Origin: a virus
Virus genome (UHGV): UHGV-1586850
Strand: one strand, 5' to 3'
Length of the DNA stretch: 11,751 nucleotides
Shown: one piece after another, positions 1-1,956 of the stretch
Layout: each line of letters opens with the position of its first letter
Position numbering within the stretch: position 1 is the first letter of the stretch
Notes under the pieces: model-generated
What the model was told of the DNA's origin: nothing
What the model saw: the letters and a program-made list of their open reading frames with translations, nothing else
The model's database searches: none
Translations under genes and position numbers: made by a program

Positions 1-1
1 T

Positions 2-406
2 GCCACCATTGCGGCACTGATGACAGTTTACGATCAGGAGCTGCTCATGAAGGAGCTACGTAAACTCACCGGTCAGCCAACAGAATGTTTTTCTGCCCCG
101 AAGTACGGGAAACAGGAACACATCCCGGTGAACACGCTCCCCGTTAACCAGCCTCCCCGGTTCTTCGACGAATACATTCTGACACCGGAAAATAAAGCTG
201 AGCACGAAGAGATCAAAGCGGCGTTGTTCCGGGAAATCAGGAAGATTGCTGAAATGCAACTGGGGGGCGGGCTGGACAGAGTGATGGCGAGAGGAGAATG
301 GGAGTCGCTGTTTGAAAGAGTTTCCCCGGAATTACTTCCCCTCGCACTGGCTATCGGGATTATGCAGACAGCGGATAAACCTCACTTACGTTCATTAAAC
401 ACGTAA
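2..406 (+). CDS. Hypothetical protein, 5'-partial (frame open to the left window edge)
   Basis: No in-frame stop between position 2 and the first ATG at 20, and no Shine-Dalgarno before ATG 20, so the gene probably starts upstream of the window. Stop TAA at 404-406. No motif recognised. Confidence 0.4.
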   Translation, partial: ATIAALMTVYDQELLMKELRKLTGQPTECFSAPKYGKQEHIPVNTLPVNQPPRFFDEYILTPENKAEHEEIKAALFREIRKIAEMQLGGGLDRVMARGEWESLFERVSPELLPLALAIGIMQTADKPHLRSLNT

Positions 407-783
407 CGCATAATCCGGGATACGCATTCAGCGATGACTGCATTTTCACCGGTTTTTACTGCATCCAGAAGTGACTCTTTAAATGGTGCGGGCCGGGGCT
501 GCAGAAGGGTCGGCGTGGCATTGAGCAGACGGAGCGTTTTTTCCGTGAGGACGACATCAGCCGCTCCCACAGCCAGCAACTGAGAGTAACGAATATAGCT
601 GTTATCCCGAAGCCATATCAGCGTATCAATAAAATACCGGCACTTTTTCTGGTCGTGATCAACCTGGTCCGGGATATCGAAAAAACCAGAATAAATCAAA
701 ACCTGAGGTGCCGGATGCGTGTTCAGTAATCGGCAGAATATTTTGCCGGTGAGTGCATAAAAATCATCATTTAAGGAGTGCAT
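382..783 (-). CDS. Hypothetical protein (about 133 aa)
   Basis: 134-codon ORF on the minus strand with tandem ATGs (complement of 781-786). GGGGA SD-like element (complement of 790-794) lies 6 nt before the second ATG. Convergent 25-bp overlap with the preceding ORF. No motif recognised. Confidence 0.4.
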   Translation of the reverse strand: MHSLNDDFYALTGKIFCRLLNTHPAPQVLIYSGFFDIPDQVDHDQKKCRYFIDTLIWLRDNSYIRYSQLLAVGAADVVLTEKTLRLLNATPTLLQPRPAPFKESLLDAVKTGENAVIAECVSRIMRYVFNERK

Positions 784-784
784 C

Positions 785-1000
785 ATGAATCCCCGATTAA
801 CGTTAACAGAACATCAGCGCCGTGCTGAAGCAGTGAACAATGTTCTGGAAGATATTATCCGGTTACATCGCGGAGAACTGAGTGTCTGTCGTGCCGCTTT
901 TCATTTTCAGGGAATACAAAAGCAGTTTGATACTTCTGTTTTTGCAGAAGGTATTACTTATGCCCTGGACCGGATAAGGTCAGAAAATCGCCCCGGATAA
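785..1000 (+). CDS. Hypothetical small protein (71 aa)
   Basis: Strong SD AAGGAG (773-778) 6 nt upstream of ATG 785. Product unrecognised. Confidence 0.45.
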   Translation: MNPRLTLTEHQRRAEAVNNVLEDIIRLHRGELSVCRAAFHFQGIQKQFDTSVFAEGITYALDRIRSENRPG

Positions 1001-1143: not shown

Positions 1144-1191
1144 CCAGACTAGCCTGCCATATTTTTAATAATTGTAAAAGGCTTACAGATT

Positions 1192-1956
1192 ATGAAAATG
1201 AAGACATTACCCATCGTTCCATGGATTGGTGGCAAACGTCGCCTGGCAAAACACATCCTGCCGCTGTTTCCGGCGCATGAATGTTATGTGGAGCCGTTTT
1301 GTGGGGCAGCAGCGCTCTATTTTCTTAAGACACCCGGCAAGATCGAAGTCATCAATGATATCAACGGTGAACTGGTGAATCTGTACCGGGTGGTAAAGCA
1401 TCACCTGGAAGAATTTGTCCGCCAGTTCAAATGGGCGCTGGTCAGCCGTCAGATCTACAAATGGCTGCAGATCACCCCGGAAGAAACACTGACGGATATC
1501 CAGCGTGCGGCACGGTTCTACTACCTTCAGAAGCAGGCGTTTGGCGGCAAGGTGGCAGAGCACAGCTTCGGTACCTCCACCACATCCCCGCCACGCTTCA
1601 ACCTGCTGCGTATTGAAGAAGAACTGTCAGCAGCACACCTGCGGCTTTCCAGAACAGTCATAGAACACATGGACTGGCAACAGTGCATTGAGCGTTATGA
1701 TCGTCCGCACACACTGTTCTACTGCGACCCACCGTACCTGGGTACGGAAGGCTATGGTGTGGATTTTCCTGAAGGGAACTACTCGCGGCTGGCAGAGCTG
1801 GCCCGGTGCATCAGAGGAAAAATGATAATTTCGGTGAACGATATCCCACAGATGCGCGAGGTGTTCACTGGACTGAACATACAGACAGTGAACATCAACT
1901 ACAGTCTGGCGGGGAAATCTACGCCGCGCCGTGAACTGGTAATCTGCAACTTCTGA
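1192..1956 (+). CDS. Dam-family (D12 class) N6-adenine DNA methyltransferase, apparently orphan
   Basis: N-terminal VPWIGGKRRL (the xWxGGK signature of Dam-like enzymes), EPFCGAAALYF AdoMet-binding motif I variant, and catalytic DPPY at residues 179-182 (nt 1726-1737) in the Dam-typical position. No restriction endonuclease candidate adjacent. Confidence 0.9.
   Translation: MKMKTLPIVPWIGGKRRLAKHILPLFPAHECYVEPFCGAAALYFLKTPGKIEVINDINGELVNLYRVVKHHLEEFVRQFKWALVSRQIYKWLQITPEETLTDIQRAARFYYLQKQAFGGKVAEHSFGTSTTSPPRFNLLRIEEELSAAHLRLSRTVIEHMDWQQCIERYDRPHTLFYCDPPYLGTEGYGVDFPEGNYSRLAELARCIRGKMIISVNDIPQMREVFTGLNIQTVNINYSLAGKSTPRRELVICNF

Follow-up and report, generated by a model that had tools for sequence, protein, structure and literature searches.

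A mobile pair of divergent phage genes whose start codons share a CATG and whose predicted ribosome-binding sites lie inside each other

Divergent bacterial genes normally need an intergenic region to hold their promoters. In Escherichia coli, divergent mRNAs that overlap at their 5' ends yield double-stranded RNA that is processed by RNase III, and the excludon and the noncontiguous operon have been described as concepts (PMC7373196). As summarized in that source, the excludon of Listeria (Sesto et al., 2013, via PMC7373196) consists of divergent genes with 5'-overlapping antisense transcripts and an expected outcome of mutual antagonism and RNase III-sensitive double-stranded RNA, the overlap arising from a long 5' untranslated region that runs across an ordinary intergenic region; in the noncontiguous operon menE-menC-MW1733-ytkD of Staphylococcus aureus (Saenz-Lahoya et al., 2019, via PMC7373196), as presented there, an opposite-strand gene sits inside a co-directional run with no spacer. 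P2-like phages carry face-to-face promoters with overlapping, interfering transcripts (PMC7498355). Here we describe two divergent genes in the first kilobase of the virus genome UHGV-1586850 (11,751 nucleotides, referred to as the window), which have zero intergenic region and share a CATG at their starts. They form a conserved two-gene accessory module, made up of a winged-helix protein of ~135-147 amino acids (aa; the fold is predicted) and a small helical protein of 63-90 aa. That this is a mobile gene pair, with the junction as its conserved trait, is our main result, and it goes beyond what an earlier note on this DNA had seen in the locus.

The two open reading frames (ORFs), 382-786 on the minus strand (134 aa, ATG start) and 785-1000 on the plus strand (71 aa, ATG start), meet at CATCATG (781-787). 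Within it, CATG (784-787) holds both the minus-strand ATG (786-784) and the plus-strand ATG (785-787), and a second minus-strand ATG lies at 783-781, the minus ORF beginning Met-Met. With the minus start placed at 786, the start codons overlap by 2 nucleotides (nt) within CATG and the product has 134 aa; placed at 783, the start is separated from that of the plus ORF by a 1-nt gap and the product has 133 aa, which is the arrangement behind the earlier note's statement that the start codons are 1 base pair (bp) apart. The same note had seen a Shine-Dalgarno (SD) motif of each ORF within the first codons of the other, and both are present: AAGGAG (773-778, plus strand) lies 6 nt before the ATG of the 71-aa gene and occupies codons 3-5 of the minus ORF, and GGGGA (790-794, on the complement strand) occupies codons 2-4 of the plus ORF. 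The latter stands 6 nt before the ATG at 783 and 3 nt before that at 786, a spacing that favours the second minus-strand ATG without deciding between the two. The note was also right that no intergenic room for promoters is left, as there is zero DNA between the genes. Across 756-825, the E. coli alleles compared show no variation.

The junction recurs in other phage lineages. In a Serratia marcescens-type BcepMu-like prophage, the gene for a 139-aa counterpart of the 134-aa product (51% identity) lies head-to-head with a 73-aa ORF, which is followed by dam; the junction is again CATCATG, with GGAGG ahead of it. Over the small ORF, no similarity between the E. coli and Serratia sequences can be detected at the DNA level, and the 71-aa and 73-aa products share 30% identity over 56 residues (BLASTP, E 6e-11). 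Comparison with phage genomes by tblastn gave ~31% identical members of the winged-helix family in Escherichia phage Midge, Klebsiella phage ST147-VIM1phi7.1 (phi7.1) and Salmonella phage FSLSP004, and in Midge and phi7.1 the annotated 143-aa homologue overlaps a divergent 63-64-aa gene by 2 bases, in CATG. A CATG and a divergent 63-64-aa ORF are likewise present in 46/46 further P2-like loci, whose winged-helix proteins are 76-99% identical to that of Midge. A Salmonella-type BcepMu-like prophage (P0032/L074), whose winged-helix protein is ~30% identical, has the CATG junction and a 69-aa partner, locus P0030/L073 has the CATG junction and a 64-aa partner, and P0033/L076-77 has CAT-GGAA-ATG, i.e., a four-base gap, and a 90-aa partner. 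In every lineage both SD motifs are strong, properly spaced and located within the first five codons of the partner: the plus-side AAGGAG corresponds to GGAGG in Serratia and AAGGGA in Midge, and the minus-side GGGGA to AAGGGA in Serratia, AGGAG in L074 and GAGGT in Midge, where it is annotated as a ribosome-binding site (RBS) in the record. About a dozen lineages were sampled in this way from the 198 family representatives described below, and their winged-helix proteins are ~25-35% identical to one another. Since the zero-length junction is kept down to ~30% protein identity and across transfer between Mu-like and P2-like phages, it looks selected rather than accidental. Either it is old and has outlasted a deep divergence in which the partner became unrecognizable or was exchanged for another, or it had several independent origins.

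Homologous pairs across these lineages and purifying selection in the P2-like one show that both ORFs are genuine protein-coding genes and that the junction is a conserved trait. The earlier note had allowed that one of the two might not be real, and a few observations lean towards such a non-coding shadow ORF: the GenBank record of Escherichia phage PhiKM leaves the 134-aa minus ORF unannotated (PQ738613.1, L001 3218-3597), and among the loci examined ~7% of ATG-initiated ORFs of at least 100 aa show a CATG-linked antisense ORF of at least 60 aa by chance, because in most cases upstream co-directional genes cast shadow ORFs. An argument from the rarity of such ORFs (~1.4% under a random model) was dropped in view of this empirical rate. 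Such pairs are thus common enough in themselves, and it is homology and selection that carry the case. Among close E. coli alleles there are too few substitutions for the ratio of non-synonymous to synonymous substitution rates (dN/dS) to decide the matter: the 134-aa ORF of the commonest variant allele (L001/L015) differs from that of the window by six non-synonymous changes and not one synonymous change, and the L016 allele gives a dN/dS of 0.30. In the P2-like lineage, where the proportion of synonymous differences (pS) is 0.5-0.6, the Nei-Gojobori median dN/dS is 0.077 for the winged-helix gene (37 distinct sequences) and 0.147 for the small gene (35 distinct sequences), and the frame of the small ORF is open in 34/34 distinct sequences with the other five frames closed in each. 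The comparison of conservation and dN/dS in each frame, which the note had proposed among its checks, supports both frames and not just one. Both ORFs are open in Serratia at the same junction, both are conserved at 30-51% protein identity without DNA similarity, and both products are modelled confidently (see below). Furthermore, neither can be the shadow of the other, since the two ORFs do not overlap each other. We therefore give a shadow ORF next to no credence, and as far as sequence evidence reaches this reading is refuted.

The Prokaryotic Genome Annotation Pipeline (PGAP) annotates both ORFs, as WP_000972292.1 (134 aa) and WP_001069609.1 (71 aa). Genes in this arrangement are easily missed by gene finders and could be dismissed as overlap artefacts. 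In one metagenome contig (L021, ~284-508), the gene caller left the divergent small ORF uncalled; this 74-aa ORF at a CATG junction is unproven as an instance of the pair, having no significant similarity to either small-protein family. One locus (L007, ENA contig_2371; proteins P0019 and P0022) carries many single-base insertions and deletions that frameshift the small ORF and its neighbours, and it was excluded from the substitution analysis because these look like long-read assembly error and not like biology.

The earlier note had found neither product recognizable, which holds in part: neither protein has a family in Pfam, NCBIfam or PADLOC-DB 2.0 (PADLOC at E<=1). Both do match PHROG families, and the larger is a predicted winged helix. 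The 134-aa protein (133 aa from the ATG at 783) matches phrog_2266 at 6.1e-44 over profile positions 1-142 of 144, a family labelled as of unknown function in PHROG. Its AlphaFold2 (AF2) model has a mean predicted local distance difference test (pLDDT) score of 91.6, and the predicted topology H1-S1-H2-H3-S2-wing-S3 is that of the winged-helix superfamily, so that the product is predicted to fold as a winged helix. This is the predicted fold that it shares with the winged-helix DNA-binding regulators MarR, Rrf2, IclR, PadR/AspA and YjcQ, and the winged-helix family gives weak profile matches to AspA and YjcQ. A profile search of 1.84 billion representative proteins returned 198 family members at E<=1e-3, nearly all of 115-170 aa. 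Pfam holds no family for these members and gave no match at E<=1 for the window protein; DUF2513, the name under which the Serratia homologue appears in UniRef, was matched by 0/51 family members at E<=0.01. There was no match at E<=0.001 in a viral structure library, and no relative came up when one genome per species was searched with the close-family alignment, the broad family alignment being too diverse for a pattern-based locus search. Literature on both protein accessions and on DUF2513 yielded nothing relevant.

The 71-aa protein matches phrog_4490 at 1.6e-52 over profile positions 1-71 of 71, again a family labelled as of unknown function. Its AF2 model (pLDDT 91.7) has helices at residues 3-28, 34-47 and 51-67, and the product is predicted to be a three-helix bundle; structural comparison of the model gave no specific relative, no helix-turn-helix (HTH) match and no toxin-like fold. 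Profile alignments with hhalign relate it to the 69-aa partner of the Salmonella-type prophage L074 (E 3e-5) and to the 90-aa partner in L076 (E 2e-4), and the small partners of E. coli and Serratia are probably homologous to both. By sequence, the small partners fall into at least two types, an E. coli/Serratia type and a P2-like type. Codons 5-8 of the 71-aa gene contain a perfect 10-bp palindrome, TTAACGTTAA (797-806), which is not seen in Serratia.

In every head-to-head case, the winged-helix gene stands alone and runs antisense to the gene on either side; the small ORF shares its direction with the far-side genes. In the window, the far side is occupied by the gene of a 247-aa P-loop protein, and the 71-aa gene and dam follow the junction; in L074 a 258-aa P-loop gene and the 69-aa gene take these places, and in Serratia an 89-aa gene, then the 73-aa gene and dam. 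The far-side genes are A, a hypothetical gene and DinI in Midge (63-aa partner), an HTH gene and a reverse-transcriptase-like gene in Klebsiella phi7.1 and L073 (64-aa partner), and tail genes in L076/77, where the 90-aa partner is followed by baseplate V. At its 3' end the winged-helix gene of the window overlaps the convergent 247-aa gene by 25 nt, at 382-406 (L002 12382-12406; L002 is the prophage locus with RefSeq annotation in which position minus 12000 gives the window position). The corresponding overlap with the upstream neighbour is 37 nt in Serratia and 4 nt in L074. With a convergent overlap at the 3' end and a divergent one at the 5' end, this is an antisense gene without a spacer at either end. 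One natural variant lacks it: in E. coli SCU-105 (NZ_CP051738.1, L083 2380-2800) the winged-helix gene is deleted (window ~410-736 is missing), and the 247-aa gene is followed on one strand by 53 nt of remnant sequence, the small ORF (here 74 aa long) and dam. Coverage of the pair falls below 80% in only 7/499 matching E. coli genomes. The SCU-105 prophage also has a different repressor, annotated as AlpA family.

The layout thus compares with the noncontiguous operon of S. aureus: the 247-aa gene (plus), the 134-aa gene (minus) and the 71-aa gene (plus) succeed one another with a 25-nt convergent and a 2-nt divergent overlap, and layouts of this type also occur in L074, Midge, Klebsiella phi7.1, L076/77 and Serratia. 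Unlike the phage pair, the S. aureus operon, as presented in PMC7373196, has no conserved mobile pair and no fixed CATG junction. As in the excludon, the genes are adjacent and divergent on opposite strands. Whereas in the excludon, as that source summarizes it, the overlap comes from a long 5' untranslated region across an ordinary intergenic region, in the pair it would be obligatory and not optional, because each RBS is coding sequence of the partner. If translation is led by the SD motifs, each mRNA must start beyond the start codon of the other gene and must carry the antisense of the other's RBS and start codon; with the SDs inside the partner genes, the two mRNAs would be complementary over at least ~25 nt (~772-796). 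Zero intergenic DNA also means that there can be no back-to-back promoters, so that each gene would be transcribed from inside or beyond the other. The pair would thereby be an extreme, fixed form of 5'-overlapping divergent transcription, and our literature search found no description of a conserved pair whose divergent starts share a CATG and whose RBSs each lie inside the partner.

The reading that we favour, by a modest degree over even chances, is a layout of the noncontiguous-operon or excludon type in which the two genes are expressed in a mutually exclusive manner. The winged-helix gene would be a lone antisense gene inside a co-directional unit made up of the 247-aa P-loop gene, the 71-aa gene and possibly dam. 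The small ORF would be served by the transcript of the upstream co-directional gene, which would cover the winged-helix gene in full on the antisense strand. The grounds for this read-through supply are the embedded-antisense layout and the natural SCU-105 variant, and the plus-strand transcription unit probably has the 247-aa gene as its upstream member. The winged-helix gene itself would be transcribed from a start within or just beyond the small ORF. The two RNAs would then collide during transcription, as transcriptional interference, and pair across both initiation regions into a duplex open to RNase III, so that only one protein of the pair would be produced at any time. Most speculatively, the winged-helix protein could be a DNA-binding regulator and the small protein its partner or antagonist. 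An extension that we hold to be unlikely is that the pair is a portable RNA-level toggle, which would leave only one protein translatable per cell, the winged-helix protein in lysogeny and the small protein in lytic growth or superinfection. Were it true, the toggle would switch an accessory programme, e.g., the P-loop ATPase, reverse transcriptase or Dam cargo, and the small protein would neutralize the winged-helix regulator.

Several points weigh against mutually exclusive expression from a conserved unit. All statements at the RNA level are inferred, and no promoter has been located; a position-weight-matrix scan of nine lineages gave only weak candidates, at positions that are inconsistent between lineages. 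Profile comparison of the P2-like small partner with the E. coli small partner detected no homology, so either the partner was replaced, or the pair in BcepMu-like and P2-like phages is not one ancestral unit. As SCU-105 demonstrates, loss of the winged-helix gene need not entail loss of the small gene. The head-to-head junction is absent from remote family members, i.e., from Nitratiruptor phage NrS-1, a Vibrio filamentous phage, a Helicobacter prophage, L020 and L078, and since these have no head-to-head partner the arrangement is not essential to the winged-helix family. Finally, mosaicism through recombination, or the usual constraints on translation initiation, could account for the reduced synonymous variation described next.

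Third positions vary less close to the junction and across the 5' half of the winged-helix ORF, whose first 30 nt form an AT-rich dip in all lineages. Codons 14-18 of the winged-helix gene contain a near-palindrome, GGCAGAATATTTTGCC (732-747, 14/16 positions symmetric), which lies 38-53 nt upstream of the 71-aa ATG within the conserved GKIFC codons. Its nucleotides, including a rare ATA codon, are kept in Serratia (L003 5034-5055) despite 51% protein identity, and the endpoint of the SCU-105 deletion falls at it. As a speculation, it might serve the small ORF as an operator or as part of a promoter. Taken with the lower third-position variation and the AT-rich dip, it hints at an extra constraint on DNA or RNA, and these hints are non-decisive.

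Such signals bear on a different account, in which the pair is a self-contained toggle, an autonomous bistable switch independent of the neighbouring operons, each gene having its own promoter buried in the partner's coding sequence so that the two promoters face each other in the manner of P2 Pe/Pc or 186 pR/pL. Movement of the pair as a unit between BcepMu-like and P2-like backbones with different neighbours fits this account, as do the conservation of the near-palindrome at the DNA level and the retention of exactly 53 nt upstream of the small ORF in the SCU-105 deletion. A further sequence, TAGTCA-16-TAAATT, sits ~96 nt into the winged-helix ORF, is found again in Midge, Klebsiella and L062, and coincides with low third-position variation. 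These motifs, however, lie in conserved codons, so that DNA-level and protein-level constraint are inseparable; no candidate reaches the consensus threshold of 9 of 12, the positions differ between lineages, and the small protein has no HTH or regulator signature. A sigma-70 consensus scan gave no site near the junction in the window (none within ~100 nt) and none near the Midge module; the early promoter, TTGACT-17-CATAAT, was picked up by the same scan, as was the terminator that follows the repressor gene. On balance, we regard the self-contained toggle as a somewhat unlikely alternative. The earlier note's suggestion of promoters inside coding sequence is the better of its two options, being favoured over a non-real ORF; the scans locate no such promoter, and the plus gene may instead use read-through from upstream.

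The conserved SD motifs also bear on the possibility that the mRNAs are leaderless. The two transcripts would then be back-to-back, starting at or next to each AUG and overlapping by ~2 nt, with no antisense interaction. Leaderless divergent genes exist, e.g., lambda cI transcribed from PRM, and the CATG palindrome would set both starts symmetrically. Strong and well-spaced SDs kept on both sides in every lineage are, however, needless for a leaderless mRNA; the position required for a -10 element is taken by AAGGAG or GGGGA, and there is no -10-like hexamer 6-8 nt upstream of either ATG. We therefore consider leaderless transcription highly improbable.

The genomic location of the pair raises yet another explanation, that it is a toxin-antitoxin (TA) or anti-phage defence module, acting alone or with a variable neighbour (P-loop ATPase or reverse transcriptase), in which the layout only balances doses. 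In P2-like phages the pair sits between gpA and gpQ, an interval described as a hotspot of many anti-phage systems (PMC9122126), and in BcepMu-like phages it sits in the variable lysis-repressor region beside a P-loop protein. The pair nonetheless matches no known TA or defence family: it has no PADLOC match, the P-loop matches of the neighbour are marginal, and no toxin-like fold was seen. Known type II TA pairs are co-transcribed, and these genes are divergent and not co-directional. The neighbours differ by context, moreover, and the small gene survives alone in SCU-105. Taken together, these points make a TA or defence module quite improbable.

Among phage switches, P2 C/Cox and 186 CI/Apl resemble the pair in being divergent phage genes with one small product and one DNA-binding regulator (predicted in the case of the pair). 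In P2 and 186, however, 40-60 bp of non-coding DNA separate the promoters, and each product is a DNA-binding regulator whose operators have been mapped, whereas the pair has zero spacing. The possibility that the pair is itself an immunity switch of the P2/186 kind was rejected: neither product shows homology to C, CI, Cox or Apl or a match in Pfam or NCBIfam, the model of the small protein matches no HTH, there are no intergenic promoters, and the pair lies outside the immunity region. If the transcripts of the pair do exclude each other, it would be the most compact natural switch based on antisense RNA or transcriptional interference, and a ready-made part for synthetic circuits. Two uncharacterized protein families, in any case, gain a predicted fold, a partner and a testable regulatory hypothesis.

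The window belongs to a BcepMu-like transposable prophage. Its bases 1-1300 are 95% identical to PhiKM, which is classified as a Bcepmuvirus, and match a prophage of E. coli SK1144 and further strains at 100% identity; the prophage is carried by 492/5426 complete E. coli genomes (~9%), many of them ST131-type clinical isolates. In L002, the minus strand carries the late and lysis genes, the holin among them; after these come a 247-aa hypothetical gene (plus), the 134-aa gene (minus), the 71-aa gene (plus), dam (plus), an HTH repressor (minus) and the early operon (plus), which contains a ner-like gene, the transposase, a B-like ATPase, gam and mor. The unrelated genes gp18-gp20 occupy the repressor-holin interval of BcepMu itself, for which reason we take the site of the pair to be the accessory region that varies among phages of this type. 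Where the prophage ends on the other side (L002 23891-24403), a truncated ATP-binding-cassette pseudogene adjoins ssuC and ssuD, which suggests that the Mu-like prophage inserted into ssuB by transposition.

The 247-aa gene (L002 11663-12406, plus strand, from RefSeq annotation and a match to phrog_3787) enters the window with its 3' part, at 1-406. Its N-terminal P-loop domain is 54% identical to the 258-aa product encoded at the same place in L074 (1941-2717), and its C-terminal domain is 48% identical to the Serratia 89-aa protein (L003 5384-5653), which is without the P-loop domain. By these comparisons the protein is modular, with a P-loop part common to L074 and a C-terminal part common to Serratia. 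In other E. coli genomes, a gene annotated as 'ABC transporter ATPase' matches window 1-128 at 93% identity.

To the right of the pair, a hairpin with a perfect 11-bp stem, CCAGCCCGGTG/CACCGGGCTGG, and a 9-nt loop lies at 1057-1087, between the 71-aa gene and dam. Its loop varies among E. coli alleles and its stems are kept, and an equivalent hairpin is found at the same place in Serratia. Since similarity to the dam-carrying phages KP12 and Phi06_2974 begins at ~1045, the hairpin marks a module boundary and probably bounds the cassette on the right; it may be a terminator or a processing site. An Rfam scan of 1-2500 found nothing. The only sigma-70-like site at 9 of 12 near the cassette, TTTTCA-16-TACAAT (1171-1198, minus strand), points leftward from the start of dam to the small ORF; the hairpin intervenes before the pair, and the site is not conserved in Serratia.

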